Below are positions 14,318 to 57,466 of a stretch of DNA of 64,000 bases, one piece after another (the stretch's first letter is position 1; every line of letters starts with the position of its first letter). The notes beneath the pieces are model-generated. The model saw only the letters and a list, made by a program, of their open reading frames with translations, did no database searches and had not been told where the DNA came from. The translations under genes were made by a program, and so were the position numbers. The stretch is from NCBI GenBank assembly GCA_000092065.1, contig CP000584.1, one strand, 5' to 3'. The DNA is from Ostreococcus lucimarinus. Its lineage: Eukaryota.

Positions 14318-16111
14318 TCAATTCGACGCGGTCCAGAACGTTTCCTCGTTTTCGGCGCCGTAACCGACGTAACGAGGTCGACGTTTACCCGCGGGAGTGA
14401 AGTGCTTGAGATAAAATGGAAGCCCGCCCTCGACTTCGACGACGTCGTCGAAGACTTCGGCGAGCGCGCGCAAGGCGTCCAAATGATACGCCTCGGAGGC
14501 TTCGGCGGCATGAAAGACGACGACTGGGGACGATTTGTCGGCGTATTTGCCATCAGCGTTGATGTTGTCTATCATCACGTCCACGGCTGGGTTGTCCACG
14601 GCGTCTGATAAGCCACCCGTGCGAATCGCCGCGGGCATGGACGTTGCTCCCTTGAGCGTCTCTCGATTGAAGTCTTTGACGGGACGAATGTCAAAGACAA
14701 CGGCGCCGCCTTCGATCAAGCGCTGCGCCTCGCCAATATTTTCGACGCGCCATGGCAGGGGCTCTTCATCTTCCTCTTCTACGATCATGACAGGTTCGGC
14801 GTTTTTGGCGTGTTCCTGCACCGCGATTCGCAACTTTGCCTTCGCGTCCTCTCGCATCTTTACCGCCTCGGCGTCGGGCTCTTTCAACAATTTATCACGT
14901 GCTTCATCGCGCGCGGCTTTCCTCGTAGCCGCGCGTCGAGCGGCGACGAGCTCTTCGGGCTCTTGCCAACGCATGTACTCTCGAGCGAGCTGAATATTAT
15001 TCACGTTTTCTTGCTCGCCAACGACGTTGCGTCCGCACGCCAACAGCCGCTCCAGCGTGATCGTCACGTCGCCTAATTTCAACCTCCGACGTTCATCTAA
15101 ACCGACGAGCGAGTCATTTAAACCATCTAAGCCGACGTTGAACACGAAATCACTGACGGCGTCATCATACACACGCGCGCGTAACGCGCCGAAGAAATCT
15201 AAAGGCTGATTCGGAAATGTCGCGACGAGCGTTTCGCAACACGCCGTCGTCAACCCGTCATCCTTCATCATAGCGTGTATCATCTCAACCAACTCTTGCG
15301 ACGTCGGCTCCCACATCCAAAGATCCATTCGACCGTCTCTCGTTAGAGGCGCATACAGTCGAGAAAAATCATTCCCCGTGACGATGATTGGCACGCGCGC
15401 GTTGGTAGATTTGGAGTCCGTCCTCCAAACCAGTCCCTCGCTCACGATCGTGGGATTGTCACAAATGTTCATCAACGTCCCGTGCGTGATTTGATTATTT
15501 ACAGTCCCCAGATCGTCCTTAAACTTACCGATCCCGGCGTCGATGTCGTTGATAATAAGACAACTCAACTTCCCCGTCTCTCTCATCGCTCGCGCGGCGG
15601 TCAGATACCTTCGCCGCAACATCGCCCCGGGCTCCCCCGCCGTCGAATCCTCCAACTCCCCCGCGCTCGTTACGATCGGCTGCAACCCCATTTTCTTACA
15701 CGCCAACTCCACGTTCATCGTTTTGCCGCAACCCTTGTGTCCCCAAATCCCCAAAATTAACGCCGGAGACGTCGCGCCGAGCGCCCCCTTATCCTTCAAC
15801 AAGTTCTTCACCACGTGCGTCGCCACGCGCTCGGCGAAGCGTTCCGGCACGTGAAACCCATCGAGCGCGGCGAACGTTCGAAACTCACGCTCGCGATGTT
15901 CGCCCGTCGCGACGTCCGCGTCGACGCCGAGAACGCTTCCTTTAAAGAGCTCTTCTTCGACACCGCTGCGTTGCGAGTAGATGAAATCTTGCCCGCCGAG
16001 CGCGTCCTCGCGCGCCGCGCGTCGCGTTCGACCGCGCGAGACGCGCCCCTGACGCGCCACGCGCGCACCGACGGGCGCGCGCGACGTCCGCGCGGGCCCG
16101 CGCGGCGCCAT
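14318..16111 (-). CDS. RCA: Rubisco activase (green-type AAA+) continuing in the same ORF into a charged coiled-coil linker and a C-terminal rhodanese-like domain.
   Basis: LILGIWGHKGCGKT...SAGELEDSTAGEPGAMLRRRY...CLIINDIDAG...VPIIVTGNDFSRLYAPLTRDGRMDLWMWEPT is near-identical in pattern to plant and algal RCA. The ORF then runs without a stop through a K/E/A-rich linker into AVVFDIRPVKDFNRETLKGATSMP...SSPVVVFHAAEASEAYHLDALRALAEVFDDVVEVEGGLPFY, a rhodanese-homology fold with Ala in place of the active-site Cys. Start is Met 16111 or 16231. Confidence 0.85.
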   Translation of the reverse strand: MAPRGPARTSRAPVGARVARQGRVSRGRTRRAAREDALGGQDFIYSQRSGVEEELFKGSVLGVDADVATGEHREREFRTFAALDGFHVPERFAERVATHVVKNLLKDKGALGATSPALILGIWGHKGCGKTMNVELACKKMGLQPIVTSAGELEDSTAGEPGAMLRRRYLTAARAMRETGKLSCLIINDIDAGIGKFKDDLGTVNNQITHGTLMNICDNPTIVSEGLVWRTDSKSTNARVPIIVTGNDFSRLYAPLTRDGRMDLWMWEPTSQELVEMIHAMMKDDGLTTACCETLVATFPNQPLDFFGALRARVYDDAVSDFVFNVGLDGLNDSLVGLDERRRLKLGDVTITLERLLACGRNVVGEQENVNNIQLAREYMRWQEPEELVAARRAATRKAARDEARDKLLKEPDAEAVKMREDAKAKLRIAVQEHAKNAEPVMIVEEEDEEPLPWRVENIGEAQRLIEGGAVVFDIRPVKDFNRETLKGATSMPAAIRTGGLSDAVDNPAVDVMIDNINADGKYADKSSPVVVFHAAEASEAYHLDALRALAEVFDDVVEVEGGLPFYLKHFTPAGKRRPRYVGYGAENEETFWTASN

Positions 16112-16423
16112 CGCGCGAAACACTGTCGCTTCGGGACAAAAGTGCGCGCGAGACGACGGGGACACGAGCCGCGGGCGTTCGCGCGCCGCACAACGCGACG
16201 ACGACGCGCGCGACGCGCGCGCGCGGCGCACACGGGTCGACGCGCGAACGGCACGAACGTTGGCGGCGCGCGAACGACGCGCGGGGCGAAGGCGACGCGA
16301 CGTGGGACGATTGATGCGCGACGGTTCGAGCCGTTACTGCCGACGCGCAAACAATCGTCGACGCGTGCTGACGAAAGGCGCGCGCGCGAAGGTGGAGGAG
16401 CGAACGAGGAGTGGATAGTGATC

Positions 16424-19400
16424 ATGGATGATAAGGTAGAACGGCGCGAGCGCACGGCGCGAGCGCTTCGCGAGGCGGAGTACGCGAAGGCGCAGCGAGG
16501 AAACTTTTTCGTGAGGAATCACGCGCGCGCCAAGCGGTATTGGTACGAGTTGAATCAAAACGATACCTCGTTGTACTTGTTCCCGCCCAGGAGTGGCGTG
16601 CGAAGGAACGCGCAACGATTGATTGCGTGGAAGTGGTTCGAGAGGGTGACGATCATGCTCATCGTGGCGAACTGCTTCACGCTCGCGTTGTACCGGCCGC
16701 TGGAGAAGCACGGACGAACGAATCAAAATTTAGAAGTCGCCGAAACGATCTTTACGGTGATGTTCACGTTGGAGTTTTTAGCGCGCGTGGTGGCGAATAA
16801 CTTTATATTCGGTCCGCCCGAATCGGACGTGTACTTGAGGGATGGATGGCGAGTTTTAGATTTCACCGTCGTCATCGGCGGTTGGGTCTCCGTCGGAGTT
16901 ATGGTCGCTGGTGGATCTGGAGGAGGTCTCACAGCTATTCGAGGTATTCGTGCACTGAGACCACTGCGATCGATTTCAGGGTTCCCTGGATTGCGCGTGT
17001 TCGTCTCGACGACATTTGCGTCGATGGGTATGGTTAGGGATGTCGTGTTTTTCCTCTTCGTCGTAATGATAGTCTTGGGTATCCTCGGCGTGCAGCGCTA
17101 CGCGGGTAAGCTGTCGAACAGATGCGCGTACGCAAGCACACTCGATCTCGTCATGGAACAAATCGAGTTTCCGTGCTCAAAATCTACCGGCGGTCGTTCT
17201 TGTGGACCCATGCAAGTGTGCATCGCTACTGCGTTGACGGGCATGGACGACGGTCATTCAACTTTCAACAACATCATGGGTGCGGGATTTATAATTTATA
17301 GAGTTTTGACATTGCGTGGGTGGACAGATTTGATGTATCAAGTCATAGACGCCACCGGTGATCGTGTTTTGGCGATAATTTACTTCATCATCATCGTCGC
17401 CGTCGGCGCAATTTTTGTTTCATCCTTTATGTTGGCGGCGGTGACGACAAAGTATCGACAGACGGCAATTTTAGACGAAAAAAGGGCGCTGGACGCCGAG
17501 ACGGAAGACAAATCGAAAGCGTTGAGCAATCCAAAAAGTAAGAGAGTGCTGGCGAGCAGGAGGGCGGGCCGATTTAGCTATGGAGAGCGCCTGGAGCGAA
17601 TGATGGAACGACCGTTGGCGTTCATGCGGCGGGAGTTCATCTACCAGCGTTGGCTGCAGATGTTTGTGAAGCACAAGTATTTCGAAAATGGTATAACTAG
17701 TGCGATTGTGGTAAATACAATCATACTGGCGGTGCACTTTCGTGGTATGGGGAGCGAGATGGAGACAGCTGTGAATAATCTGAATTACTTGCTTTTGTCA
17801 GTCTTCGTGTTCGAGTTGGTGATGAAAGTACTCGCATTCGGAATTTTAGGATATAGCAAGGATCGCTACAATTTGTTCGACGCGACTGTTGTCACTGCCG
17901 GTCTGATAGAGCTGGCATATCGTAACAGCAGCTTGGCCGTCGCACGCGCGTTCCGTCTGTTGCGAGTGATGCGCACGACTCGCCTCATCACAAGAAACAA
18001 GAACATGCGGCGTTTGATAGATACCACCATGGAGAGCTTCAGTGCTATTCTGAACTTTTGCGGTGTCCTATTCGTCTTTGTTTTCGTCTTCACGGTTTTA
18101 GGCATGCAGCTATTTGGTGGACGCGACGAGTTTTGGGATGCGCGGCCGAATTTCAACACCTTTGGGGATAGTTTTCTCTCTGTATTCGAGATTCTGACGG
18201 GATCGCATTGGTACAAGTTGATGCTCGTCGCCATGAGTGGCTCGTACGGCGCCCCTGCAGCCTTGTTTTTCATTTGCTGGTCCTTCATCGGTTCATTTGT
18301 GCTGTTGAATCTCATCGCGGCGATGCTCATTGACACATTTTCACGCACGATGCGAGCAAAGGAGCTCGAACTCGAGCGTTTGCGCGAGGAAAAGAAAGAG
18401 ACGGAACGCCGAGAGGCCGAGGCCAAACGTCAACGAGAAATCAATACTCTTCTCGAGGGAAACAATGATGATGAGATGGATAAGGTGGAAGTGCACCAGG
18501 AAGGCATAAGCACGGAGTTAACACGGTTGATGAAACCAAACGAGATTCGACGCCATCCGGATGCCAAGCGCATCGTGAATAGGATGAATACACGCAAACA
18601 GCGAGCATTTGCGAGAGAGGTGCAGCTGATAGAAAGGTGGCTGGAGATAATAGGTTTCACAGAAAATGATAGTGATGTTGACAGCGATAGTGAAGACAAC
18701 GCGGTGGATGCCAATGAACAGCTCGTCAAGGACCGAGCACTTTTAGTTGACGAGTTGGCGGTTGATGATGGCGTGCCAGAGAGCCAACTGACGACGCTCA
18801 TGCGAGAAAAGGCATCTAGAAAAGTATCCGCACTTGTCGCTACTGGTATCCCGATTCCCATGGATGATCGCCAGGTAAGGGCGGCCTATCGACGTTGGAG
18901 AATTGACGCGGCGGCGGAACAAGGCAGCGATAGCGACGAAGACATGAATATCCAGAACACAAACACACTACGGGATGAGTACGGCGGTACAGCGGACGGC
19001 ACGGCTGCCAGTGCAATGGAGGTCCGAAGACACTTGCAAGAACATGCGCTCGCTGAACTTCGACGCAGTCTGTTGGAGCGTAGCGGCGAGTCGGGTACTA
19101 AAGACGCGCTTCAATGGGCGTCGCAGGCGCCCACAATTGGCTTGGCGATGAAGAGCGCGGAGGCTCGGATGCGACCAGAAGAACAAACTGCGATCATCGC
19201 ACAACGTCGAGCGGAGGGCAACAAAAGTGGTCATCTCGGCAAATTCAAAGGAGACGGAATGAGCGCCGAAGGCGCTGCCGCAATCGCCGAGGCAAATTTG
19301 CTGAGCATGCGAATTCGCGAATCAGAGCGCTTGGAAGCTATAAAGAAGAAACGTGGCCAATCAGTCGACGAGGACGTGCCCGCGGCGTCCGACGACGTCG

Positions 19401-21838
19401 ACGCCAACGATGGACTAGCTCCATCACCTGTCAATCCGCCGACGGAGCGGAAGACGGCTTCTTGGCGCGCCAGGGTGAAATCTACGCAGCCTGGCGAAGA
19501 ACGCAAGTCGTTGTCGGAATCGCTGCGAGGTATGGCTGATAGACCAAGACCCGGTCCCGTGACAGAGTCTTTCAACGAAGATAACATATCTAGTGCGTCA
19601 CCGAGCAGAGATGGAGATACGATGTCAAATTCACACTCGGCACGAAGTCCCCGCAACTCGCGTTCACGCGGTTCGCAAACAACTGGAGATTCTGCGCACG
19701 CGTACAACACCCTCGTGCCCATCGTGGAGTATACGTCGATGCCACCCTTGCTGAACATAGACTACAGCCTCCCGAGGATATCCGAAGACGTACACGCCGG
19801 TAAAGCCAGGAAGGCGTTGGGATTACCCGTGCGTGACATCGTTGTTGATGAGACGAAAATTGACAAATCTTCAAAGAAGAACATCGCCGAAGAGGACTGG
19901 TTACGCAATGCCGGTGCGACAAAGGATGAGATTTGCATGATGTACCCGTCGTTGGGTTTCATCAAGCCGCGACGCCCGATGCGACGTTTGCTATTCATGC
20001 TTATCAAGCATCCCGCGTTTGAGGCGCTCATGCTCGTTCTCATCGTATTCTCGTGCATCCAGCTCGCGCTCGACGCGCCCACAGTGCATCCAGAAAGTGA
20101 TTTGGCCAGCGTTCTCAAAGCAGCGGACGTATCTTTCACGCTCATATTTTTGGGCGAGGCAATCATAAAAGTAATTGCGATGGGCTTCGTTATGCACCCA
20201 GGAGCATACCTTCGATCTCCTGCGAACTGCTTTGACTTTTTCATTGTCATCGTATCGCTCGCCGTCGAAACCATGAGCGCGTCAGCACTGAAGTCTATGC
20301 GCAGCTTCAGGTTATTTCGAGCTCTGCGTCCTTTGCGCCTGTTAAATCGAGTTAAGAGTATGCAAATCGTCGTTGCGACGCTGCTTCACGTCCTACCTGA
20401 TCTTGGGAGTGTGATGCTGTTGGGATTGTTTCAGTTTTTGATTTTCGCAATTCTGGGCTCGCAGTTATTTGCTGGTAAATTTGATTACTGCAACGACCCT
20501 ACGGTCTCTGGAATGCACGCGTGCGTCGGGACGTTCGTTGACGAGAAAGGTGCACACGTGACTCGCCGGTGGCTCAATCCGCCACTGAACTTCGATAACA
20601 CCCTGCTCGCTCTACTGAGTCTCTTCGTCATCGTCACACGTGACGGATGGCTTTCTGTAGCGTTTCAAGGCATGGACTCAACGGATACGGACTTGCAGCC
20701 ATCTTTAAACAACAGTGGCTGGACAGCTATTTATTTTTTGAGCTTTATTGTGATCCTCTCTTTCGTCTGGTTGAGTATGATCGTCGCCCTCGTGTGCGAG
20801 AGTTACAAGAAGGCTTGTGTGTTGAGCAACTCGACGCAGACGCTCAACGCCGAGCAGCAAGAGTGGGCGGAAGTTTTGCGTATGAAAAAACACGACGCCG
20901 AGCTCAAAATATTGGATGACGACACAACCGGGGCGCCACGGTTTTTCATTCGAAAATCGGCTTACTCCTTAGCCACGAACCCTCGATTTGAGGCTTTCAT
21001 CGTTGGCTGCATCATTGCCAACACTATCACCATGGCGTCGTATCACGACGGACAACCGAAAGCCTATGCCGAAATTCAACGAGCGGCGAATGTGTTTTTC
21101 TCTTGGATCTTCTTGTTAGAGCTCTCGTTGAAAATGGTCGCACTGTTCCCGAAACGTTACTTTTCAGAGCGCTGGAACGTGTTTGATTTCATCATCGTCG
21201 TGGCTAGTATTCCCGACCTCGCAGGTGTGGATTTCGCCGGTACCACGGTGCTCCGCGTCATCCGACTTGGACGCGCGCTACGTCTGTTTAAACAAGCGAA
21301 GGGTCTACGTACGGTTTTCAATACGCTATTGAGCTCCTTTGAAAGCGCGTTTAACGTCGTTTTCCTGATATTCATGTTGATGTTTGTGTACGCGGTGCTT
21401 GGCATGAATCTCTTCGGCGACTACGAAACCACGTATCCGAGTGGACGTGTGGAGAACTTTCGGAACTTTGGCGCATCGCTTATGGTTCTCTTGCGAGTCA
21501 TCACGCGTGATAATTGGAAGCGTATCATGTTCGACACGATGAAATGTGAATACAATGTGGACGGCGTCGCGGCGAATTGCAGTTACATCTTCGTCCCGGC
21601 GCTCTTCTTCACGAGCTTCATATTGTTGGGGGCGTACGTGTTGTTGAGCCTTATCATCGCCTCCATTTTGGACAAATTTACTGAAAACGCTGTGAACGAG
21701 GGCCTGCTTTCGACGGCGAATATATTCGTCACTGTCCGTCGAAAGTTGCTGCTTGACACGTTTTCCACCAAGCTCAAGATGAAGCTCGACTCGTTCAAAG
21801 TGAAGAAGCCCACGAGAGGGGCACGAAAGAAAAAGTAG
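16424..21838 (+). CDS. Four-domain voltage-gated cation channel (Cav/Nav/NALCN superfamily), 1804 aa, single exon.
   Basis: There are four repeats, each with S1-S6. The S4 segments carry R/K every third residue (IRGIRALRPLRSI; AFRLLRVMRTTRLITR; SFRLFRALRPLRLLNR; LRVIRLGRALRLFKQAK). Pore loops align with Cav (FNNIMGAGFIIYRVLTLRGWTDLMY; FEILTGSHWYKLM; FVIVTRDGWLSV; LRVITRDNWKRIM). Long cytosolic I-II and II-III linkers are present. Confidence 0.85.
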   Translation: MDDKVERRERTARALREAEYAKAQRGNFFVRNHARAKRYWYELNQNDTSLYLFPPRSGVRRNAQRLIAWKWFERVTIMLIVANCFTLALYRPLEKHGRTNQNLEVAETIFTVMFTLEFLARVVANNFIFGPPESDVYLRDGWRVLDFTVVIGGWVSVGVMVAGGSGGGLTAIRGIRALRPLRSISGFPGLRVFVSTTFASMGMVRDVVFFLFVVMIVLGILGVQRYAGKLSNRCAYASTLDLVMEQIEFPCSKSTGGRSCGPMQVCIATALTGMDDGHSTFNNIMGAGFIIYRVLTLRGWTDLMYQVIDATGDRVLAIIYFIIIVAVGAIFVSSFMLAAVTTKYRQTAILDEKRALDAETEDKSKALSNPKSKRVLASRRAGRFSYGERLERMMERPLAFMRREFIYQRWLQMFVKHKYFENGITSAIVVNTIILAVHFRGMGSEMETAVNNLNYLLLSVFVFELVMKVLAFGILGYSKDRYNLFDATVVTAGLIELAYRNSSLAVARAFRLLRVMRTTRLITRNKNMRRLIDTTMESFSAILNFCGVLFVFVFVFTVLGMQLFGGRDEFWDARPNFNTFGDSFLSVFEILTGSHWYKLMLVAMSGSYGAPAALFFICWSFIGSFVLLNLIAAMLIDTFSRTMRAKELELERLREEKKETERREAEAKRQREINTLLEGNNDDEMDKVEVHQEGISTELTRLMKPNEIRRHPDAKRIVNRMNTRKQRAFAREVQLIERWLEIIGFTENDSDVDSDSEDNAVDANEQLVKDRALLVDELAVDDGVPESQLTTLMREKASRKVSALVATGIPIPMDDRQVRAAYRRWRIDAAAEQGSDSDEDMNIQNTNTLRDEYGGTADGTAASAMEVRRHLQEHALAELRRSLLERSGESGTKDALQWASQAPTIGLAMKSAEARMRPEEQTAIIAQRRAEGNKSGHLGKFKGDGMSAEGAAAIAEANLLSMRIRESERLEAIKKKRGQSVDEDVPAASDDVDANDGLAPSPVNPPTERKTASWRARVKSTQPGEERKSLSESLRGMADRPRPGPVTESFNEDNISSASPSRDGDTMSNSHSARSPRNSRSRGSQTTGDSAHAYNTLVPIVEYTSMPPLLNIDYSLPRISEDVHAGKARKALGLPVRDIVVDETKIDKSSKKNIAEEDWLRNAGATKDEICMMYPSLGFIKPRRPMRRLLFMLIKHPAFEALMLVLIVFSCIQLALDAPTVHPESDLASVLKAADVSFTLIFLGEAIIKVIAMGFVMHPGAYLRSPANCFDFFIVIVSLAVETMSASALKSMRSFRLFRALRPLRLLNRVKSMQIVVATLLHVLPDLGSVMLLGLFQFLIFAILGSQLFAGKFDYCNDPTVSGMHACVGTFVDEKGAHVTRRWLNPPLNFDNTLLALLSLFVIVTRDGWLSVAFQGMDSTDTDLQPSLNNSGWTAIYFLSFIVILSFVWLSMIVALVCESYKKACVLSNSTQTLNAEQQEWAEVLRMKKHDAELKILDDDTTGAPRFFIRKSAYSLATNPRFEAFIVGCIIANTITMASYHDGQPKAYAEIQRAANVFFSWIFLLELSLKMVALFPKRYFSERWNVFDFIIVVASIPDLAGVDFAGTTVLRVIRLGRALRLFKQAKGLRTVFNTLLSSFESAFNVVFLIFMLMFVYAVLGMNLFGDYETTYPSGRVENFRNFGASLMVLLRVITRDNWKRIMFDTMKCEYNVDGVAANCSYIFVPALFFTSFILLGAYVLLSLIIASILDKFTENAVNEGLLSTANIFVTVRRKLLLDTFSTKLKMKLDSFKVKKPTRGARKKK

Positions 21839-22035: not shown

Positions 22036-23481
22036 TTATTTTTCAGTCTTTTCTTTCTGCTCGGATGTTTCATTCTCAGTCTTGATGGCTTTTATCTTTG
22101 CCGACGTTGTCGCCGTTACGGAAGTGTTTGCGGCGGGCGCCACCGAGCCAAAGCCGTATGGATTTTGCATCGCTCCTTGGAACTGTTGCATTTGAATGAA
22201 GTGCGCCGCCATCTGCTGGTTAAACATCTGTTGCTGAATCGCTTGGAAAACTGCCGGATTTGAATGATCTTGCTGATCTGTGAATTGCGCCCACGGATTC
22301 TGGAACAGCGATGAGTACTGCATCGCCGACATCACGTTTCCAGAGCCGGGCGCCCGAGCGGCCGGGGCGTACGTAGTCGTCGCCGCGGTGGCAGCTGTAG
22401 GATAAGAAGGCGTCGGATGCGATAAACAGTCTGTTTTAAGCGCAGCCTCAGAGATGGGCGTGGCTGGTGCGACGTGCGCGCCGCTCAGCGCAGGTTGTGG
22501 TAGGGACGCCGAATTCTGCATGCCGCCAAATGGGAACATGCTCTTGTTCCAAAACTGCATCCCCCAGCGCGAGGCGGCTGACATTATGGCTGCCGAAGCC
22601 GCCGCAGCGGCCGCAGCTTGAGCTTGGGCGTGCTTGTCGCTCGTCGACAACATACCCGCGTTCACGTATCCCGCGACGGTCGGGTCGATGCCCCACCCTG
22701 AGACGTTGTAGCCCATCGCGGCGGTGTCGCCTACGGGCGCTTGTTGCGACCCTTCCGCGCTCCCTTGCTCATCGGTGGGCGATCGGTCGCGCAGCGCGGT
22801 GTCTGAACCAGCGTTCGACCCGTTGGTGTTCCATCCCGAGGGCTGTCGTCCGCCGTAACCCGAGTTCATGCCTTCGCCTTGCTCGGCTTCGGTGGCGCTT
22901 CCGTCTGAGGAACCGTCGCGCTTGGTTCGCGCCGTCTTGCTCCGATTTCTGTTCGAGCCCTTCTCAGCGGGCGTCGCCGGCGTGCATCTCGCCCGCTTAC
23001 CGCCAACATGTTGATCATCGTTGCCCTGCGCAACCGCGAATCGCCCCCGTACATCCTTGAGCGAATTCTTCTTTCTCCGTCCCGCGCCCACGCGCACGTT
23101 GCGCAACGACCCGCCTTCGGTCCAATACCTGCAACACTTCTTACAGTAGAACCTCGGCTGCTTGATGTTGTAATTGTTATAGTAACAAAACTTCGTATCG
23201 TCGCTCTTACACCGCGGGCACGCCACCGCGTAATCCGGCTTCGGCAAAGGTTCGCGCTTCTTCTCGTCGCCGCCGACCTCCGTCTTCGCGCGCGCACGCT
23301 TCCCCGCGTTCGCCGCATCACCGTCCCCGCTCGCGCGCGCGTTCATCGTCGGCACCCCCGCATTTCGTTGCGACTGCAACCTCTGTTCTTTCGCCGCGTT
23401 CGCCTCCGCCGCTTGTCGCCGCACCTCGCGCGCCTTGGCGTTCGAAGTCGCCCGCGCCCGCGCGTTATCCGACGCGCGCAA
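22036..23481 (-). CDS. Dof-type zinc-finger transcription factor.
   Basis: [51 protein letters not shown] is a canonical Dof domain. The C-terminal half is Gln/Ala/Ser-rich and low-complexity, as expected for an activation region. Confidence 0.85.
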
Positions 23482-24020: not shown

Positions 24021-27000
24021 CTAGGCGAAGGGGGACGACGCGGCGACGCGCGGACGCGGGGAACCGTCGGCGCGGGCGTCGGACGGTTTGAGCGACGACG
24101 CTTCGAGGCGCTCGATTTTCGATGCCGCGGATTTTAAACCGTCGAGCGCGGCGACGAGGGCGGATTCGTCGGCGTTGGCGGGGGACGACGTCAAGTCGTC
24201 GCACGACAACGCGTCGCACTGGTCTCGAAGACTGGCGGTGACGTCGAAACCGAGCGCGGCTTGGTCGACGGCGCGCGGGAAGACCGCGAGGAAGTCACAC
24301 GCGGCGCGCGCGGCTCGATAGAGGGCCACGGCGACGGCTTCGGAGTACGCATTGCCAGTCTTTCGCGTCGAGGCGTCGGCGATGGGCGAGCCGTGCGGCG
24401 CCGTACCGATGAGCGGCGACGTGGGTTCGCGCACGGAGTCACCTCTCGCGGTGGCTTGGAACCATGCCTGAGTGGCACGCGTCGCCGGTGGTTTTGCCGC
24501 CAACGTTTCATCGGCTCGCGTCTTTCGAGGACATCGCAAGCCCCCGACAACCTGAGGCGCGGCGAACCATCGAAGAAAGCTCACGCACGCCACGCGACAG
24601 CGCATCTGGCCTTCGGGCGAAGAAACTTGCCACTGCGCACCGAAAGTGGACGCGAGACGGCTGAAGAACAACGCCGTCACTTCGACTTCCTTGAGCGTCG
24701 CGAGTGTGATCTCTTTTGGCGCCAAAGCGGCGAGCATTCGAGCTTCCAACGCCGCGCAAAAGCGAACGAGATCAGCCCCGACGTCTACAGAGTGCACGGC
24801 GAGCGGCGATCCCGCGAGCATGGCGGTGACGCGCAGAGCGGAGCAATATATATCGTGATTTGTCGTGTTGTGACGTTCGGCCTTGTTTGACTCGACGCAC
24901 AAGATGGCGAGAAGACGGACGGTGTCCGACGCGAGTAAAATCTCCGCTCCTTGATCGCTCTTGGAAAGGCTCAGGCACGTGTTTAGAGCGGCGATGGTCA
25001 CACTGTCGACGTCGTCGTCGCCTGTCGCCGGCCGGAGCGCCGGCATTATCTTGTAGGTACTGAGCACTTGAAGCAGCGCCGACGTCGGAAGCAGGTCGCT
25101 GGCGATGTCTGCGAGCAACATGAGCGCCACGCTCGATGTCGTCGAAGCCTTAGCGTTATTCGTTCCAGAGTCCCCTGCAGCAGCTTGGCAAATGAGAGGT
25201 ATGAGAGGCAACGCGGACTGGCCAAGCTCATAACTCGGCTGCACTGTCTTAGCAGATTGCATTCCGGCGCGCCACGCTCGGATGGCGAACAGCATGGCGG
25301 TGAGCAATGGGTTCACGAGAGACGCCGCTTCTCGCGATGGCGATCCCGAAGCGCTTGTTCGAGGAGCCAAAACCGTCGACACAACCAATATCACGCGCTG
25401 CACCGGTTCGAAATCGTTCTCCGCTGGTGTCTGAGGTGACGCACTGGATACTGAAACGCTCCACAACTGTGTCACGACGGACAACAACGTGGCCATTTCA
25501 TTCGCCAACGGGCTGACGTAGGAAGGCATGCTCGCTGAATCCGTCACGATGATCTTCTGCAAACGCTCAGCGACGTTCAATACGAGATCTCTTCGACTAT
25601 CTCTCGAAAGCCCATCGAGGAGAGTTTTCGGCGCACCTGTCGTCGTTGAGGCAGGTTGCGTGAACACCCCGGCGTGCATCTTCGGCAACTCACCAAAGGC
25701 GGCAGCGGCGATGAAGGAGCTCAACGAACAGATAGCGGACGACTGCGCGTCTGTGATCGACGACAGTAGGCACGTCTCGGCGAGCTGAGCGCTCATCGCA
25801 CGCCCCATGTCTGCTAGGGCTCCTTCGGGTGCGCCCCACTGATCGTCCGCGTTCGAACCCACACATCCCGTAGCGACGCGAATCCAATAGGAGTCGTACA
25901 AATACGATTCACCGTACTCAGCAGTACCAGCGACGCTGAGAGGAGCCGGAGCGAACGCCACGGCCTCGACGTGCATATCGCGGGCCGCCTGCACGAGTCT
26001 ATGCACCGCATCGGCTGACATAATAGAGCTCGGGCTTTGTGTAGCCGCCTCTCGAGCGACGGCTTCTAGAATTGCGACATTCGACGCCCCAGACGCTCTC
26101 AAATCTTTCGCCGACGCGTGCGAGAGCAAAGCGTCTCTGATTTTTCCACACATCCACTGTAATGTCGCGTCTGCCATCAACGGCGAGCGCTTCGCACTCA
26201 TATCTTCGCGCTCAAGAACCGATATGCATTGCAGAACGAACGCTTGCGCGGCGAATTGCGTCTTTTGGCGCGACAAAGCGCAACTCTCGTGCGAGAGACA
26301 CGTATCAATCCATGAACTGATGCGTGAGTTCGCGCACCATTCTCGTACCTGCGCGTTAAACGTCGCGCTCGACGTCCCGTCGAGAGCATTCATAGACGAC
26401 TCCGCTTCGATGGCGAATAGCGAAAGCACAGAACTAGCCGCGCTCAAGCTATGCGCCACCGCCGGTGGAGTAACTTCCTTCTCCGGTTGATCCACGCACG
26501 TCGCCAGTCTTTTCCACAACTCGACGTCCTTGACCTTGAGTGTCTGAATAGACTCGATGAGAAGTGGCTGGCGGCGCCAGAGAGCATCGAGCATGCGCAA
26601 AAGTGCCGCCAGGCAACGGGGCGACTGCGAGCGTATCTTTGTGGTGTCCTCGAGGATGTCCCACACTAAAGCCAACGCTCCTTCAACAGTCTTTTTCGTC
26701 TTTGTCGGGAGCGGCGGCGTCGGTGGTGGTTGCGTCGTAGGCGTCGTAGGTGCGAGAGCATTTGTCGGCGTCGTAGGTGCGGCAAGTGCGCCGGAAGCAG
26801 TCGGAGCTGGTAATGAAGCGGGGCGCTCTTCTTCGGGCTCTTTTTCGGGCACGAGTAAGGTGGCGACCCATTCCGGCTGATTTGCGATACCTGCGCTGAG
26901 TAAATCTGCGATGTCACACACGGCGTCCAAATCAGCGTGCTTGAACATGTGCTGCATCGAGCTCAGAATCTCCGCTCGATCTTGTCTGTCTAGCGTTGCA

Positions 27001-29786
27001 GCCATGGGAACGGCGTTCGCCGCCGCGCACAAAGGCACGAGGGCCGGAAGTGCGAGTGGAAAACACGCCGCAGCGTACGGATATCCGGCATATGACGCGA
27101 TCGAGCTCGCAAAGGGAGCACCATTATTACTAGTTTCGATGAGCAGCATTCGCTCGAGTACACCACCGAAATTATCACCTGCGTGATAAACGATGAGTGG
27201 TATAGACCTGAGCACCGTCGCAATTGCTTCTTCGAGAGCCGTAACTTCCTCTGTTCGAGGCGCACCGCCTTCTTCATGCAACTTGCGTAGAGACGCTGCA
27301 TCGTACACGAGTGGTGCAAACGATCCAAAGCAAATCGCCTTGTCGTTGATCAAGTAGGACAGCACCTTGTCACGAAGTCTAATGGCAAAATCGCCGTGTC
27401 GGGGAGTGAAAATTTGATAGATGATGCGCTGCACCGCCGCGTGAACGATCCATTTTTCAGCTTTGTGCCTGTACCGCCACTGCACGTGACGGACAGCAAT
27501 TTCTTGCAGGACATGATCTACGAGGGCCTCGAGCTTATCGCCAAGCCCACCATGTTGGAGTAATGTCTCCACTAAACTAAGCACGGCCAACGTCAACGGA
27601 TATTCACCGAGGCGCGACTCGCTGTCGCGAATGGCGCGAATCAACCCGGGGACACCAGTGCCTGGAGTGCCCGACAGGAGCGGCGCCTCGAGTACCTCTG
27701 CAACGGTTCTAGTGGGCTCAGCCGCGGCGAGTGCAGATAATGCCTGTAACACGGTGGCGGTCGATTGAATGCTTTGCTCCGTATGAAGAGACTTGCTTCG
27801 CACGTGCAACGCCAACGAAAGACCTGTGAGGATGTCGGTCGGTGACCCTTTCGGCACGGACTCAGAAACGTCACATGATAACATTGGTCTCGCAAATGAT
27901 GGTGCGTGCGTCAAAACTTTGGACAAGAATAACGTCGTCGCGTCGAGTTCATCACTCTCGCTCGTCGTCAATTCTCTGCTCAACCCCGCACTCGCGAGCA
28001 GGGAAAGGCGAGTCAGACAAAGATGCAAGCCGTCAGCAGGTGCGGCCCAGACGATCAACGGTGTGGTTTGTGTGCCCATATCAATTGCCAAACCGGACAT
28101 GCCAGCTTCGATGAATCCGCCGGGAATGTAAGGACTTGTAAGCCGATGGATGGCGGTGACCGAACCGCTCGCGAAGCCCGACTCGACGTCCATCACAGCG
28201 TCCTCGCTTGGTTTCAAGCCTTGCTGCATGATGTCTGGAGAAGGCACCGGTAGAGCAACCGTCGGCAGTTGTGCGATGTATGCCAACGCGCACTCCGCCG
28301 CGCGATGGCCCTCGGAAAACGCCGCGAGTACTCTCAACAGTGGGGCGGAATCGTAAGGAAACCGCTCTCGACAGCCTTCCAAGAGCGCGAAGAGCGGAGC
28401 CTCTTGGCCGTCCTCTCTCGCACCACCCCAGAACTGCTCGCATAGCACTGGCTGATGTGCGAGAAGTTTTCGTAGAACGCTCAAAATCTGGTTCAGGTCG
28501 TGAGTGGGCAAGCGGTGAACGGGAAGCATGTCGTACGCGGCGAGAATGGTGGAGAACATATTCTTCAGCACGCTCTTGTGGAGCGTCACGGTGGCGTCTT
28601 CGCCTCGCAACTGTTCCGCATCGAGCAAGTGCGACAGCGCAGAGAGCCCGCATTCGTTCGCTTTCTGCGTCATGATTTCGATCGAAAATCCGCCCGGCAT
28701 GTACTCAGCATCCACCGGTAGCAACGTGAGAAACGTTGACCACGCGAGCAGCGTTGGTCCGTGCGCCGCGTCGCTCTGCCATTTTTCCATCATTTCAGTG
28801 ATGGACTTTAGCACAGTCGCTTCCAAAAAACCGTGCGCATTCAGGCTCTTCCCGGAAAATCGATCGACTAAGTTTTCTAAATCCATCGCCGCGATCAGGG
28901 TGACGTTGCACAGCGCGCGAATATCCTCCGTGAACGCGTTCACGTGCGCCTGGGGCGCGTGCGACTCGAGCTCAATCGCCGCCGCGGGCGCGCGCCTGAG
29001 CGCACCCTTCTCAAACATTCGAGCCAACTTCATGAACATTTCAGGTTTGCACTTCACGCGGTTGTAGTACAGCAAAAATAGAACCTCCAGCAGCGCCACC
29101 GTCTCTTCGAGCGTTTGCCCCGCCCACGCCGCGGCGTCCTCCGGACTCGCCCCCTCGGGCCCGCTCGCGCTCGCCCCGCTCATGTGCCGATCGAGCGCGC
29201 GCCACACGTTCTCCTCGAACCCAAGATCGAGCATCTTCGTCACCGCGCGCTCCCACGCGTCGCCATCCGCGCCGCTCGACGCGTCCCCGCTCGTTCTCGA
29301 GAGCAGCGCGTGCGCGCACTTGATGGTCCCGAGTCGCTCCCGAAAGTAAAACCGCATCACCTCTCGCACCACCTCCTCCGTCGCCTCGCTCGGTCGCGGC
29401 ATTTCGCTCTCATCCAGCGCGCGTCTGAGCAGGACGTACGTCTGCGTCTCGTCCAACCGCAATCGTCTCGCGCACTCCGTCGCCACCTTCGCCGTCGTCG
29501 CGCTCACCCTCAGCGTCTTCCCCCCGTACTCCACGCTCCCGCCGCGCAGCGCCTCCGCGCTCGCCGCGCGCGTCGGTCCGTACGTTTCGCACGCGCGCGC
29601 GACGTGTTCGAGCGCGTCCTCGAGCGTCGACGTCGTCGCGTCGTCGACGACGTCGCCGCGCTGAACGGTCTCATCCAGGGCGTAAAACAGCGCGCGCGCG
29701 TTCGGCAGCGTCGCCGTCGCCGTCGCCGTCGACGTCGGCGCGAGCGGCGCGGCGGCGAGCGCGCTCGGCGCCGGCGCGCTCGGCGC

Positions 29787-29818
<32 letters not shown>

Positions 29819-29837
29819 CGCCGAACGCGAACGACAT
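24021..29837 (-). CDS. Very large (~1938 aa) predicted alpha-solenoid protein of unassigned family. The N-terminus begins MSFAFGAPAPAPAP. A scaffold-nucleoporin-like (Nup188/Nup205-type) protein is possible.
   Basis: This is a continuous 5.8-kb ORF with non-repetitive, helix-rich composition throughout. I recognise no catalytic motifs. The first Met matching a sensible start is at 29837; the ORF upstream of it is Arg-rich and junk-like. Confidence 0.45.
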
Positions 29838-29945
29838 GTCGTTCGACGCGCGCGTCGAAGTGCCGCACTCGCGCGCGCGCGTCGGATCGCCGACGCGCGA
29901 ATTCGCGCGCCGATCGTCGAGCGCGCGCGTCCGCGCGACGTCGCG

Positions 29946-31076
29946 ATGCGGTGCGGGGAGACGACGGCGCGCGAAGCGACGTCGAGGGCTGGCGACGGCG
30001 CCGCCGGGACGCGCGGTGACGAAGACGGATTCGTGCGCGACGCGGGCGTCGGATGTCACATCGCGCTGGACGTCGCGCGCGCGAATCACTCGTCGTGGTT
30101 GCTCGGCGCGGAAGTCGTGGACCCGGACGAGTACTCGGACGACGCGGAGTTCCCGGACGTGGCGTTGGACGCGGATGGACGCGGGGACGCGCCGAGACTG
30201 AGCGCGACGAACGCGGACGGATCAGACGCGGTGAAGGTGGCGTACATCACGGTGTACGACGTGAAGTGTTATGGGAAAGGGAATAAATCGCTCGCGCAGG
30301 GCGTGACGATCGATAACGATGGACGACGGTCGACGGTGACGACGTTCGTGTGCCTGGTGCCGCCGCGCTCGATGGCGCACCTGTGCTTTTTGCGACTGGA
30401 GGGAAGGGACGTGCGGGACGTGCGAATCGACAGCGATTTTCGCGCGTGGTCGATGCATCCGAAACCTAATGACACGCACAGCCAATCGGTGGGGTTTCCT
30501 CTGCGAGGCGAGCGATTTTTGTGCACGCAGAATGAAGGGGGCGAATTGACGCACTTTTTCAGCGGGAATTTGCACGCGGTGGATTTCAGATGTCCCGAAG
30601 GCACGCCCGTGCTCGCGGTGGGCGATGGTGAAGTAATCGAAGTGTGCGACGAGAACACGCTCACTGGAATCGCGGTGTCGAATCTATTCAAATGGAATTC
30701 AATCGTGTTAAAGCTCGACGCTCGCTCGACGCCGGAGACGCCGCTGAGAAACGCGAGCGCTGAGTGCGCCACCACGACTGAGGCCGACGTCTCCACGTAC
30801 GACGTCAGAGGTGGTGATTTATTTGTCGAGTACGTGCATATTCGCGCCAAGAGCGCCAAGGTTAAGGTCGGCGACCGCGTGCAGCGTGGACAAGTCATAT
30901 GCGAGTCCGGCTCCGTGGGATTCAGCCCCGAGCCGCATTTGCACTTTACGGCGTTTCGCTCGGGCGACGACACCGCCGACACCGTGCGCGTCTTGTTCGA
31001 AGCGTGCGACACCGGTGCGACATATCTCCCGCGCGCGGGTTCGTATTACACCGATAGCGTAGGTAAGTGCGCGTAG
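29946..31076 (+). CDS. Peptidase M23 (LytM/lysostaphin-type) domain protein.
   Basis: GNLHAVDFRCPEGTPVLAVGDGEVIEV, followed ~100 aa later by GSVGFSPEPHLHFTAF, matches the M23 HxxxD...HxH metal-site layout (compare GGNHYGVDF...TGPHLHFQ). The first motif is one residue shorter than canonical. The 5' part of the listed ORF (29115..29945) overlaps the large gene on the other strand and is not coding. Confidence 0.55.
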   Translation: MRCGETTAREATSRAGDGAAGTRGDEDGFVRDAGVGCHIALDVARANHSSWLLGAEVVDPDEYSDDAEFPDVALDADGRGDAPRLSATNADGSDAVKVAYITVYDVKCYGKGNKSLAQGVTIDNDGRRSTVTTFVCLVPPRSMAHLCFLRLEGRDVRDVRIDSDFRAWSMHPKPNDTHSQSVGFPLRGERFLCTQNEGGELTHFFSGNLHAVDFRCPEGTPVLAVGDGEVIEVCDENTLTGIAVSNLFKWNSIVLKLDARSTPETPLRNASAECATTTEADVSTYDVRGGDLFVEYVHIRAKSAKVKVGDRVQRGQVICESGSVGFSPEPHLHFTAFRSGDDTADTVRVLFEACDTGATYLPRAGSYYTDSVGKCA

Positions 31077-36325: not shown

Positions 36326-37201
36326 TCAAGACCAGTGCATTCGCTCAAGCAGCCGGCGATACAGGTACGGCGAGAGCTCGCTGAATCTACCAAAAGGCAC
36401 GTATTTTAGCACGTTTGCCTCCTGCTCCAAAAGCCGGTTCGTGGTTTCGTCGTCCATGCCGAGGAGCTGCGCGTAAAGCACGCGTCCTTTATTTTTATGC
36501 TCCAGCGCTTGATCAATGTTCGCGACGTTTCTAGTGGCCACGAGCGTCGTCACGTGGTCGTTGCCGCTTTGCAGGGCAATTTCCAAGCCGCGTTCGTAAG
36601 ACTTGTCCACCAACGCCTTATTCGGTAACAGCGCTCCTGTCTCTCGATCGAGTCGAAGGTACGCGCCGCGTACGAGCTTGGCACCGATCGTGAATCCGAG
36701 ATCCCTCGATCGCTCGATGTCTTCGCGCAACTCGTCCACGGCGTCGGCGCGGTACATTTGGTATGTCTTGAACACAGTCGGATACTCGCCCCCGTCGTTT
36801 TGCGAGGTGTTATATTCGCGCATCAAATCAAACGCTGTCCGAGAGTAAGCCGCATGTAATGCGTTCTCCTCCGCGTCGATACACACCGAAGTCTTCAACT
36901 GAGCCGCCCGCCTGGCGATGTTCCTCGCGTGTCTCTCCGCCGTGGCGTGGTTCTCCTCGCTCCCGAGCGCGCTGAGCTTCAGCGCGTGCATCGCGGAGGG
37001 AAACTCATTCATCCTTTCCGCGATCACGTGCGCCACGTGCGCCGATTCACGCGTCGGACGATGCTCTCGCGCGAAGTCGAGAATGGTGCCCACTCCAAGA
37101 CCTCGCAACCCCTCCACCAACGGTCTCAACTCGTGCGTCAGCGCCGCGAACCGCAGCGTCGGCCGCAACGCGCCGACGTTCCGCAAGAACGCCATCACCA
37201 C
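36326..37201 (-). CDS. Proline dehydrogenase (short, monofunctional PutA-type catalytic domain, 291 aa).
   Basis: VCIDAEENALHAAY...FKTYQMYRADAVDELREDIERSRDLGFTIGAKLVRGAYLRLDRE...VATRNVANIDQA...YAQLLGMDDETTNRLLEQEANVLKYVPFGRFSELSPYLYRRLLE carries the ProDH signature blocks (TYQxYL, KLVRGAY, ATHN, FxQLxGM, KYxPxG...YLxRR). Confidence 0.8.
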   Translation of the reverse strand: MVMAFLRNVGALRPTLRFAALTHELRPLVEGLRGLGVGTILDFAREHRPTRESAHVAHVIAERMNEFPSAMHALKLSALGSEENHATAERHARNIARRAAQLKTSVCIDAEENALHAAYSRTAFDLMREYNTSQNDGGEYPTVFKTYQMYRADAVDELREDIERSRDLGFTIGAKLVRGAYLRLDRETGALLPNKALVDKSYERGLEIALQSGNDHVTTLVATRNVANIDQALEHKNKGRVLYAQLLGMDDETTNRLLEQEANVLKYVPFGRFSELSPYLYRRLLERMHWS

Positions 37202-37631
37202 CGCTCACGCGCGCGCGCGCGCCCTCAAATCGCGCGCACGCGCGCCGCGCTCGACCAAAACGCGTCGTTCGCAAAACGCGTCGTTTCGCAATTCCAACAG
37301 TCGCGCGCGTTCGAGCCCACCGGCGCGCGCGCGTCGCTCTCTCTCTCGCGCGCTCTCGCCGACGCTCGCGCGCGTTCGTTCGCGCGTTCGTTCGTTCGCG
37401 CGCGCGATCCGTTCGCGCCGCGCTCGATCGCCGTCGCGCGTCGGTGTGCCGCCGCGTCCCGCGTCGACGCGTTTTGGCCGCGCGACGGTTCGCGACGCGT
37501 TTTGGTTCGTGAGACCTAAACCGTCACACGGACCGCGCACGATTTTTTCGCGACCGTTCGGCGTCGTCGTCAGTCGGCGACGCCGGCGTCGCGCGCGCGG
37601 CGGGCGACGCGCGCGCGACGACGCGACGCGG

Positions 37632-40625: not shown

Positions 40626-42749
40626 TTAAGTCGACGGGCAAAGTGCTTCTACCAAATCGCCGATTCGCACAGAGTATTCAGTCTCCTTTTCTTGTTCGTC
40701 AGCGGCTTCGTCACGGAACTTTTGTTCGATTATGAAATCTTTCCATTTCGTGCCGCGGTAACCAGCCCGCTTCATGAAAGCGGCCTTAGTTATTGTCTCG
40801 CCTTCGGGCATGCGAATACTGGACTCGCCCTTTTCATTCATGAAAAACTCGCCCAACAACTCTTTGCATTTCACCGCGAAGTTGATCGAAGCGGGTCGCT
40901 TGATCGTAATTTTTACCTTTGCCGTGCCTTTCTTTGATTCGCCTTTGACTGCGGCGACTTGAATTGTGTCTTCAGCGGGTTCTGTGGTCTGTTTCGCCGC
41001 ACTCGCCACAACATCCTTTCCTGGCGTGCTCTGTTTGGACGAGTCGCCGCCGGACGACTGGGCGGCAACATTTATGCTAGAGAGTATGCGACTCAACCCA
41101 CCTGGCGCTCGAATGACTTTTTCCAACACCTTGTCGTTCGCGGTCGTCATGTCGCGCGGCGTCAACGCTTTACTACTCGTCGCAGTCACGCGTTCAGCCG
41201 TCTTCTGCGACGAACTCGAAGAGCTACTGCTTGACGAACTCGAAGAGCTACTACTCGACGATGAGTCCGATGAGTCGCTGCTGCTAGAAGAGCTAGAAGA
41301 GTTACTACTCGACGATGAGCTACCGCTCGAACGAGACTTAATCGCTCCTGTGTTCGATTCCACGTTTTTTGGTTGCGTCGCTTCGTCTGCTTTCGCGCTG
41401 TCCTTCTCGTTGTTGGCATCCTTTTCGGGGAGTGAAGTTAGATCAGCCTTGCCGCTCAGCGACGCTTCGTCGTCCTCTTTCGCGCTCGCCGCTGTTCCGT
41501 CTTCGGCATCTTGCCACATCGGCATTTCACCATCGTACCCGAGTTCGCCCAGTATCGCTTGCGTAAGCATTCTTTCGACGACGCCAAACCTTTGAGATGA
41601 GTGTCTTGGAATTTGTTTCGTAAATCCGTCAACCAGGCAAGTCGGCACGCGTTTATGTTGTGCGTAACCGGATCGGTACAGGCGGGCGATAAGAAGCGCG
41701 ACCGCGAGAAAGTCGCCGACTTCCCTATTTACGGCAGGGGTCATTTTTGCAATCTTTTCGCCCAGTTCATTGAAAATCAGGGTGCCGGTTTCGTACTGCA
41801 CGATGGCGATTTGCTGCGTCACGGCATTCGTCGTTCTCACCAGAGTGTCGAAGGTATCCATATTCAAACGTTCCAGTGCGTTTATGAAAGCTTTACTTAC
41901 GAGCAACGTCTTTACGAAGACGCTATACTGCACACCAGGATTTTTATCGAGCAATGCCTTGACTTCGTCGTACGTCGTTGACGTACTACGCTTGACCGAG
42001 GCCGCTCCCGGCGCCGGAGCTATTTCTTCCACCATCTCCCAAGGACTAGCCTCTGGAACTTCTTCCACGCGCTTGCGTTTCGCCGGTTGCGTCTCAGTTT
42101 TGTCAGCACTCGCGTCTCTATCCCGTTTGTCTCCGGCTTTAGTGTCTTTCGTTGTAACCTTTTCGACGTCCTGGCGTAGCGCAGGCGTCTCACGCTTCGC
42201 GAAAGCCTTCGGCGTCTCTACCGGCGCCAATGCCACGGGCATCGGTGTCGTCGCAAACGCCGTCGTATTCAAGTTCATCGGCGTACCCGCGCTCGCAAGC
42301 GGTGAGATCGCAGGACTAAACGGCGAGTTCACCAACAGCACGCTCACGTTTACCTTTCTGTTTCTCTCCTCCAAAGCCTCCGGCGTGCACATCGCGCGAT
42401 ACGCCGCGATCCCTTCATCCACCCCGCGCTCGGGTTCCACTTGCGCAAACAACGAATCGAACGCATCGTATTTCATCGATTCATCGTCCAAGTCGATCCA
42501 CTTCTTCACGCCGCTAAAGATTCTCAGCGCGTGCAAGTCGCCGACGACGGCTGAGCCGAACCTCGCGCCGTACTTCTCATCGTGCTTGCGTCGAATAGCT
42601 TCCCTCGCCGCTTTCACCCCTGCCTTGACGTCGATGCTCACCGTGAACGACGTCCCGACGCACGTCTCCACGTCGACGCGTCGCACGTCGCTCTCGCGCG
42701 GCATCTTCGCGTGCCGATGCCGCCGCCGCCGACCCGTGTCGAGATTCAA
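40626..42749 (-). CDS. Hypothetical protein (~700 aa) with a conserved-looking central globular region, a long Ser-rich tract and a basic C-terminal domain.
   Basis: It is a continuous ORF with non-junk composition. The tract [42 protein letters not shown] is encoded by imperfect 36-bp nucleotide repeats near 41190..41340. I recognise no domain with confidence. Confidence 0.4.
   Translation of the reverse strand: [707 protein letters not shown]

Positions 42750-57428: not shown

Positions 57429-57466
<38 letters not shown>

Follow-up and report, generated by a model that had tools for sequence, protein, structure and literature searches.

An R/S/D/D selectivity-filter ring in a four-domain voltage-gated-type channel of Ostreococcus and related green picoalgae, with a pore predicted to exclude Ca2+

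We analyzed a 64,000-nucleotide stretch of Ostreococcus lucimarinus DNA (contig CP000584.1 of assembly GCA_000092065.1; hereafter the window), in which a gene on the plus strand encodes a four-domain ion channel with arginine, serine, aspartate, and aspartate (R/S/D/D) at the selectivity-filter positions of its four pore loops. The open reading frame (ORF) spans 15815..21838 (+), with a GTG at 15815 upstream of the first ATG at 16424 and a stop codon at 21836-21838. The ATG at 16424 is also the start of identical 1804-aa proteins in marine metagenomes, where the entries P0001/P0121 match the window protein at 100% identity. Pfam scanning returned Ion_trans (PF00520) four times (E 2e-194) and, besides, only the related PKD_channel model. 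These four domains and the matches to solved Cav3 structures bear out the view of an initial annotation, made from the letters alone, that this is a four-domain voltage-gated-type channel. The features of the gene are as follows.

16424..21838, plus strand: complete intronless coding sequence of the four-domain channel, 1804 aa plus stop
16604..17467, plus strand: domain I (S1-S6), residues 61-348, from the domain hidden Markov model (HMM) envelope and Pfam Ion_trans
16940..16969, plus strand: S4 of domain I, RGIRALRPLR, four Arg at every third position
17264..17353, plus strand: domain I P-loop (P1 helix, filter, P2 helix), from alignments and the AlphaFold2 model
17315..17317, plus strand: domain I filter residue R298 (CGT) in TLRGW, aligned to Cav3.1 E354
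17648..18355, plus strand: domain II (S1-S6), residues 409-644, from Pfam and the domain HMM
17945..17995, plus strand: S4 of domain II, six Arg
18152-18241, plus strand: domain II P-loop
18203..18205, plus strand: domain II filter residue S594 (TCG) in TGSHW, aligned to the Cav3.1 domain II Glu
18356..19981, plus strand: II-III cytoplasmic linker, ~540 aa, long, charged, and poorly conserved (mean identity 0.29)
19982..20821, plus strand: domain III (S1-S6), residues 1187-1466, from Pfam and the domain HMM
20291..20350, plus strand: S4 of domain III, seven K/R
20591-20680, plus strand: domain III P-loop
20642..20644, plus strand: domain III filter residue D1407 (GAC) in TRDGW, aligned to the Cav3.1 domain III Asp
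20954..21694, plus strand: domain IV (S1-S6), residues 1511-1757, from Pfam and the domain HMM
21254..21292, plus strand: S4 of domain IV, five K/R
21458-21547, plus strand: domain IV P-loop
21509..21511, plus strand: domain IV filter residue D1696 (GAT) in TRDNW, aligned to the Cav3.1 Asp and the Cav1.2 Glu
21695..21835, plus strand: C-terminal tail, 47 aa, from Pfam

The register of the filter was set by phmmer alignments against the chains of solved structures (E354 follows the numbering of chain 6kzo_A). The best matches were Cav3.1, Cav3.2, and Cav3.3 (E ~1e-167), followed by Cav1/Cav2 channels (1e-146 to 1e-139), Nav channels (1e-123 and weaker), and NALCN (1e-58). Around every filter the alignments were gap-free and carried the top posterior marks: 'vltlRgwtdlmy' stands opposite Cav3.1 'vitlEgwvdimy' in domain I, 'iltgShwyklm' opposite 'iltqEdwnkvl' in domain II, 'ivtrDgwlsva' opposite 'laskDgwvdim' in domain III, and 'vitrDnwkrim' opposite both Cav3.1 'vstgDnwngim' and Cav1.2 'catgEawqdim' in domain IV. 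All four domains read T-x-[filter]-x-W, with a ring of Trp two positions after the high-field-strength (HFS) filter residue, at HFS+2, and the Arg that precedes D1407 corresponds to the K/R of Cav3 (S[KR]DGW). When the four domains of the orthologs were aligned to one another, all filter residues fell in a single column.

An AlphaFold2 model covering domains I and II (31-row alignment, mean predicted local distance difference test score (pLDDT) 80.8, predicted template modeling score (pTM) 0.72) places R298 and S594 within the 3-4-residue coil that joins P1 to P2, with the Trp beginning P2. In domain I the model has a helix at 235-246, coil at 247-250, and a helix at 251-262 (model residue 249 is R298); in domain II it has a helix at 531-543, coil at 544-546, and a helix at 547-556 (model residue 545 is S594). 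A Foldseek search with this model returned Cav2.2, Cav1.2, NavPaS, Cav3.3, and Nav1.7 at probability 1.00 (TMq 0.63-0.71), a comparison that does not tell Cav from Nav templates. A shifted P-loop register was considered and is ruled out by the gap-free P1-to-Trp alignments to Cav3.1 and Cav1.2, by the single-column domain alignment, and by the AlphaFold secondary structure. Thus, the four codons given for the ring in the initial annotation are exact, its R/S/D/D assignment is upheld against Cav3.1, Cav1.2, and the AlphaFold2 model, and the ring is indeed none of EEEE, DEKA, and EEKE.

The voltage-sensing apparatus appears complete, as that annotation had also proposed. The S4 segments of domains I-IV carry 4, 6, 7, and 5 Lys or Arg residues, the S4 of domain I matches the S4 string of the O. 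tauri ortholog in Table S2 of Pozdnyakov et al. 2018, and direct reading finds the S2 Glu, the next Lys/Arg, and the S3 Asp in every domain. The extracellular turrets display a 4-0-2-2 cysteine pattern (C234, C251, C260, and C266 in domain I, none in domain II, C1356 and C1367 in domain III, and C1708 and C1719 in domain IV), a pattern common to four-domain, six-transmembrane (4x6TM) channels (PMC4436565, PMC6259924), and a 31-sequence alignment of diverse four-domain channels shows no variation at the four cysteines of domain I. A Pfam scan of the 47-aa C-terminal tail found no EF-hand, GPHH, or IQ module; the EEEE four-domain channels of other algae and protists that we recovered (P0016-P0018) have PF16905. 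The III-IV linker is short, a trait listed by Fux et al. 2018, with 44 residues between the domain-HMM envelopes (1467-1510), and direct reading of this linker, YKKACVLSNSTQ...GAPRFFIRKSAYSL, finds neither an IFM nor an MFM motif. The II-III linker is acidic and Ser-rich, starts with the charged stretch KELELERLREEKKETERREAEAKRQRE, and includes 22 positions that are invariant across the Arg-bearing clade described below. Taken together, these features and those of the pore suggest that the product of the gene is a functional four-domain voltage-gated channel, one of a family specific to green algae.

Several residues around the filter depart from the usual Cav pattern. The S6 Asn that is conserved in Cav and Nav channels is kept only in domain II and is Ser in domains I, III, and IV. 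By direct reading, these substitutions lie at the following positions.

about 17400-17440, plus strand: Asn-to-Ser site in IS6
20780-20800, plus strand: Asn-to-Ser site in IIIS6
21640-21660, plus strand: Asn-to-Ser site in IVS6

The domain II P1 helix carries E588 (18185-18187) five residues before the filter, reading VFEILT where Cav channels have VFQILT (Gln). The Arg clade retains this Glu throughout, as do 3 of 5 sister sequences, and it could partner the domain I Arg. At HFS+1 of domain II, the 'beacon' position where Asp is expected, the window protein has His. Near the domain IV filter, Arg at +4 is near-invariant within the Arg clade.

The pore mouth is unusually basic. Summing charges over positions -2..+6 around the filter residue of the four P-loops gives a net +3 for the window protein (basic residues R298, K598, R1406, R1695, K1699, and R1700), -1 to +3 across Ostreococcus, and -2 for Micromonas-type orthologs, against -4 to -8 in all surveyed Cav and Nav channels. 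Mouth charge varies among orthologs whose ring is the same; the conserved determinant is therefore the ring and not the mouth, which argues against anion selectivity.

Conservation of the ring was followed well beyond the window. No recovered ortholog lacks it (one set contains 59 R/S/D/D and 9 R/A/D/D sequences, and another set adds more), and hence it is not due to chance. Ostreococcus-type sequences are all R/S/D/D save the O. tauri cluster, which is R/A/D/D. For distant relatives, we used an HMMER search with domains I and II over 1.84 billion representatives together with a second homolog search, which recovered the Arg-bearing ring at 33-38% identity in P0410, P0411, P0412, the P0244/P0405-P0409 group, and P0226. 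The filters read TMRGW, TGSDW, TMDKW, and TGDGW in P0410 and P0411 and TKRGW, TASQW, TxDRW, and SGDDW in the P0244/P0405-P0409 group, while P0226 has R/D/D/D. Across a 16-sequence Arg clade reaching down to ~33% identity, the domain I Arg and the domain III and IV Asp residues are invariant, and the domain II residue is Ser in 14 of 16, the others being Ala (O. tauri) and Asp (P0226). The filter residues are among only 5-8 invariant positions per 30-residue P-loop in this set, and none of >80 sequences has Lys at the domain I Arg position. By comparison, domain II HFS+1 varies: the window protein has His, O. tauri has Ser, and others have Glu or Asp. The ring is thus kept in Ostreococcus, in Micromonas-type algae, and in a third group, as the initial annotation had suggested checking in related picoalgae.

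With synonymous sites saturated at 60-65% protein identity, we used synonymous variation of the filter codons themselves as the measure of selection. These codons vary synonymously between loci (Arg CGT/CGC/CGG/AGA; Ser TCG/TCA/TCT/AGC; Asp GAC/GAT). Judged from the sequences, purifying selection has preserved the ring and the residues of pore and sensors, as in a working channel, and the further suggestion that the channel might have an even more divergent function finds no positive support.

In a neighbor-joining tree (the only method used; 957 concatenated domain columns, 100 bootstraps), the Arg-bearing sequences form a clade with bootstrap 99 (99-100 for the clade with the O. tauri and Micromonas orthologs), which is nested in a green-algal clade with bootstrap 96. 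The other members of the latter carry E/S/D/D ([Myrmecia] bisecta KAK9829920.1), Q/S/D/D, Q/A/D/D, Q/N/D/-, and S/S/D/A. This series suggests that domain I changed stepwise from Glu to Gln to Arg, its charge first lost and then reversed; the three residues are reachable by single-nucleotide steps (GAG, CAG, CGG). Deeper nodes have bootstrap values of <=28%, and none of them gives support to a link with animal Cav3, so 'T-type' is a similarity label rather than a statement of orthology.

The surroundings of the gene identify its lineage and its orthologs. Two genes flank the channel gene.

14318-16231, minus strand: Rubisco-activase-like AAA gene
22036-23481, minus strand: Dof zinc-finger gene

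The Dof and Rubisco activase neighbors point to the green lineage. A Tara Oceans contig encodes an identical channel protein, whose neighbors there are SecY, ATG2, a methyltransferase-like gene, the Rubisco-activase-like AAA gene, and Dof, the same genes as in the window. Consistent with the picoalgal origin supposed at the outset, these neighbors are accompanied by O. tauri and O. mediterraneus orthologs, and a viral or bacterial origin of the window is ruled out by the nuclear green-algal neighbors and by synteny with both species. The order Rubisco-activase-like / channel / Dof is kept in all five Ostreococcus-type loci (L001-L005, window included). These relationships mark the window as nuclear DNA from an Ostreococcus lineage distinct from O. 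tauri and O. mediterraneus. The Micromonas-type locus L006 (64% GC) and the P0244 locus L007 (57% GC) share ribosomal S8e / WD40 / RING upstream, and Dof, ATG2, HMA, and the methyltransferase-like (Cons_hypoth95) gene of the Ostreococcus locus recur in one or both of them; their channels are therefore positional orthologs of the Ostreococcus channel.

Fifteen close full-length relatives have 58-65% identity. One relative cluster holds O. tauri CEF97603.1, XP_022838780.1, and OUS49469.1 (62% identical to the window protein over 99% of its length), and another holds complete O. mediterraneus MMETSP transcripts. The protein recurs, unchanged or nearly so, on many independent contigs (253 cluster members). 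In P0410 and P0411, three S4 strings are identical to those of Micromonas XP_002504950.1 (Pozdnyakov Table S2), and P0268, with the S4 strings of CEF98340.1, represents an EEEE four-domain paralog in O. tauri. The P0405, P0407, and P0408 clusters contain many 700-1000-aa fragments on contigs up to 1.08 Mb, which points to introns within the gene, or to gene-calling errors, in those genomes. The channel coding sequence is a GC trough (51.7% against 60% for the whole window, with 49.5% in the 20-22 kb bin), and orthologous coding sequences dip likewise relative to their own loci.

The literature does not bear out the novelty implied for the ring. Fux et al. 2018 (PMC6259924), citing Verret et al. 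2010, list RSDD/RADD pore motifs for prasinophyte 4x6TM channels, and Pozdnyakov et al. 2018 (PMC5824947) analyzed O. tauri CEF97603.1 as 'Ostret2' in clade WSC XXIX and noted that Micromonas and Ostreococcus have filters containing arginine; the 'Ostret2' S4 strings match those of the window protein. We found no functional studies of RSDD/RADD channels in the literature. The pore type is thus already known, catalogued since 2010, and the window copy is an ordinary ortholog. What is added to the published record here is the invariance of the ring down to ~33% identity with synonymous codon turnover, the E/Q/R series in domain I, the match to a DEKA pattern rotated by two domains, the unusually basic Ostreococcus mouth, and the EEEE paralog of O. 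tauri.

Comparison with known channels places the window protein among the prasinophyte RSDD/RADD channels of WSC XXIX, with which it shares family, locus, synteny, and ring, and S4 strings near-identical to those of O. tauri. Relative to the O. tauri ortholog, the domain II filter residue is Ser instead of Ala and pore-mouth residues differ, but nothing differs in kind. The sister green-algal E/S/D/D, Q/S/D/D, and Q/A/D/D channels have the Ser or Ala of domain II, the Asp residues of domains III and IV, and the domain II P1 Glu at -5 in common with it, but have Glu or Gln, not Arg, in domain I. With animal Cav3 (EEDD) it shares four domains, charged S4 segments, the 4-0-2-2 cysteines, the domain III/IV Asp pair, the basic residue before the domain III Asp, and a tail devoid of EF-hand and IQ modules; it differs in having Arg and Ser for the domain I and II carboxylates, a short I-II linker, and no beacon Asp. 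Membership in Cav3, as in the NCBI name of one O. tauri copy ('T type, alpha 1G subunit'), is ruled out by the R/S/D/D filter in place of EEDD and by a position outside the Cav3 clade in the neighbor-joining tree.

Nav1 (DEKA), cnidarian Nav2.5 (DKEA), and NALCN (EEKE/EKEE) resemble the window channel in having one basic ring residue and a net ring charge of about -1. However, the Lys of Nav channels lies in domain II or III, where the window protein has Ser and Asp, its sole basic residue being the domain I Arg; it also lacks the IFM motif and the outer acidic ring of Nav and is less similar to Nav than to Cav3. NALCN and fungal Cch1 are likewise set apart, since all S4 segments of the window protein are charged, its ring is not EEKE/EKEE, and its match to NALCN is far weaker than that to Cav3. 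The only experimentally studied four-domain pore that combines an Arg, two carboxylates, and one small residue is Nav1.4 K1237R (DERA), which excludes Ca2+ (PMC2391246); it differs from the window channel in being engineered and in having its Arg in domain III, a Nav scaffold, and the Nav outer acidic ring.

From these comparisons, altered ion selectivity, as the initial annotation proposed, is a reasonable inference. The reading that we consider most likely, with a probability of about 50%, is that of a voltage-gated, Ca2+-excluding channel that depolarizes the cell by passing monovalent cations with weak discrimination and operates beside an EEEE paralog. Because the voltage sensors are canonical, depolarization would be expected to open the pore. 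At the filter, Arg in place of the domain I carboxylate and Ser in place of that of domain II would leave two Asp and one guanidinium, net -1. Earlier work identifies the EEEE locus as the only place in Cav pores where Ca2+ binds with high affinity (PMC2233694); a ring of two carboxylates and one cation cannot provide such a four-carboxylate site. If Nav1.4 mutants are a guide, the fixed positive charge would exclude Ca2+ and pass monovalent cations: Lipkind and Fozzard 2008 (PMC2391246), summarizing Favre et al., state that Lys or Arg in the Nav1.4 ring 'prevents Ca2+ ... permeation completely', and the Lys-to-Arg mutant DERA conducts with a PK/PNa of 0.9. Since the base is Arg rather than Lys, little discrimination between Na+ and K+ would be expected. 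The missing domain II HFS+1 'calcium beacon' Asp also counts for exclusion of Ca2+, as a Cav3 channel becomes a Na+ channel once this Asp is neutralized (PMC10120453). In seawater, the resulting inward Na+ current would depolarize the cell without a Ca2+ load, and Ca2+ entry could be handled by the EEEE paralog.

Several points weigh against this interpretation. The selectivity is argued from an analogy to Nav1.4, in which the base lies in domain III of a different scaffold, and the P-loops of the four domains are not interchangeable. Two nearby acids, the invariant Glu five residues before the domain II filter in P1 and the adjoining domain IV Asp, could keep the Arg side chain off the permeation path, leaving a Ca2+-permeable S/D/D site. 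Micromonas-type orthologs bear Asp or Glu at domain II HFS+1 (TGSDW), the beacon position itself. Furthermore, the mouth charge of Ostreococcus channels, outside the range of Cav and Nav, could mean a very low cation conductance or an occluded pore.

These points lead to alternative explanations of the ring. One is that R/S/D/D is an independent copy of the DEKA filter, turned by two domains, in a convergent Na+-selective pore. Going round the pore, R(I)-S(II)-D(III)-D(IV) gives base, small, acid, acid, which is cyclically the order of K(III)-A(IV)-D(I)-E(II), and both rings carry a net charge of -1; in O. tauri the small residue is Ala, as in DEKA. A tethered cation beside a carboxylate could admit Na+ and not K+ or Ca2+, as in Nav, and the critical carboxylate of Nav1.4 is the one that precedes the base (AEKA retains wild-type selectivity, PMC2391246), whose equivalent here would be the invariant Asp of domain IV. 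Na+-selective voltage-gated channels are also known in marine protists (bioRxiv 10.1101/2020.04.29.068528, PMC9114117). We nevertheless regard this copy of the Nav filter as unlikely: the sole direct test of Arg for Lys, DERA, lost Na+/K+ selectivity, moving the base to another domain (DKEA) cut selectivity about fourfold (PMC2391246), and the family lacks the Nav outer acidic ring and stands apart from Nav in the tree. Quite unlikely, in turn, is a Ca2+-permeable, T-type-like channel in which the Cav3 Asp pair is kept, the Arg is salt-bridged away, and D/D (plus S) forms a weak-field site. The ranking of Cav3.1-3.3 as best matches (E 1e-167), the near identity of the domain III and IV P-loops to Cav3 (TRDGW vs S[KR]DGW; TRDNW vs TGDNW), the NCBI name, and the Asp at domain II HFS+1 in Micromonas-type orthologs all suit it. 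Yet two carboxylates with a fixed positive charge cannot build an EEEE/EEDD high-affinity site, the link to animal Cav3 is unsupported, the window protein has no beacon Asp, and the Arg is invariant, never Lys, Gln, or Glu within the clade, which argues that the charge itself is selected.

If the guanidinium sat between the two Asp residues like a bound guanidinium toxin, the central pore would be closed or nearly so, and the protein might act as a voltage sensor through its II-III linker or conduct by another route. This is improbable in our judgment, although the net positive Ostreococcus mouth is unlike that of every Cav or Nav surveyed, the ~540-aa II-III linker retains some invariant positions, and three of the four conserved S6 Asn residues are replaced by Ser. 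P-loop and S6 conservation equals that of the voltage sensors, which is what selection for conduction would produce; current passes through Nav1.4 DERA (PMC2391246); Micromonas-type orthologs combine the same ring with a net negative mouth; and no partner protein is known. The basic residues that crowd the outer pore of the window protein (net +3 over -2..+6 of the four domains) would also suit a pore with switched charge selectivity that passes anions, or protons. This is very improbable, as the invariant ring is net -1 with two Asp, and the positive mouth is restricted to part of Ostreococcus while orthologs with the same ring differ. Moreover, the voltage-gated cation channel superfamily is not known to include any channel selective for anions. 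Gene decay or an error of assembly or annotation has a negligible chance of explaining the ring, with nothing but the unusual residues in its favor, as opposed to an uninterrupted 5.4-kb ORF, the 253 cluster members on many contigs, synonymous filter codons, synteny, and transcripts.

A positive filter charge in four-domain channels enabled fast Na+-based excitability in animals. If it arose a second time, independently, in green picoalgae, this would bear on the evolution of selectivity and on whether Arg can stand in for Lys, with the sister sequences recording the domain I path Glu -> Gln -> Arg. The RSDD channels would then be the first green-lineage four-domain channels built to exclude Ca2+ and carry Na+, and marine picoalgae would split depolarization (RSDD) from Ca2+ signaling (EEEE), as animals do with Nav and Cav. 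By a rough estimate, a single open channel in a cell of ~1 µm could swing both the membrane potential and the Ca2+ load. Because the motif has been catalogued since 2010, the value now lies in electrophysiology rather than in the sequence observation.

Elsewhere in the window, a 2022-aa ORF at 24021-30089 (-) has no Pfam match at E 1e-5, and a gene of 1900-1990 aa occupies the same place downstream of Dof in other Ostreococcus-type loci. ORFs of 1216, 707, and 679 aa at 36918-40568 (+), 40626-42749 (-), and 56905-58944 (+) match no Pfam family at E 1e-5, and some of them may be high-GC antisense or frame artefacts. A gene at 49257-51719 (+), unrelated to the channel, belongs to the HCO3- transporter family (PF00955, E 3e-77) and is of possible interest for carbon uptake.

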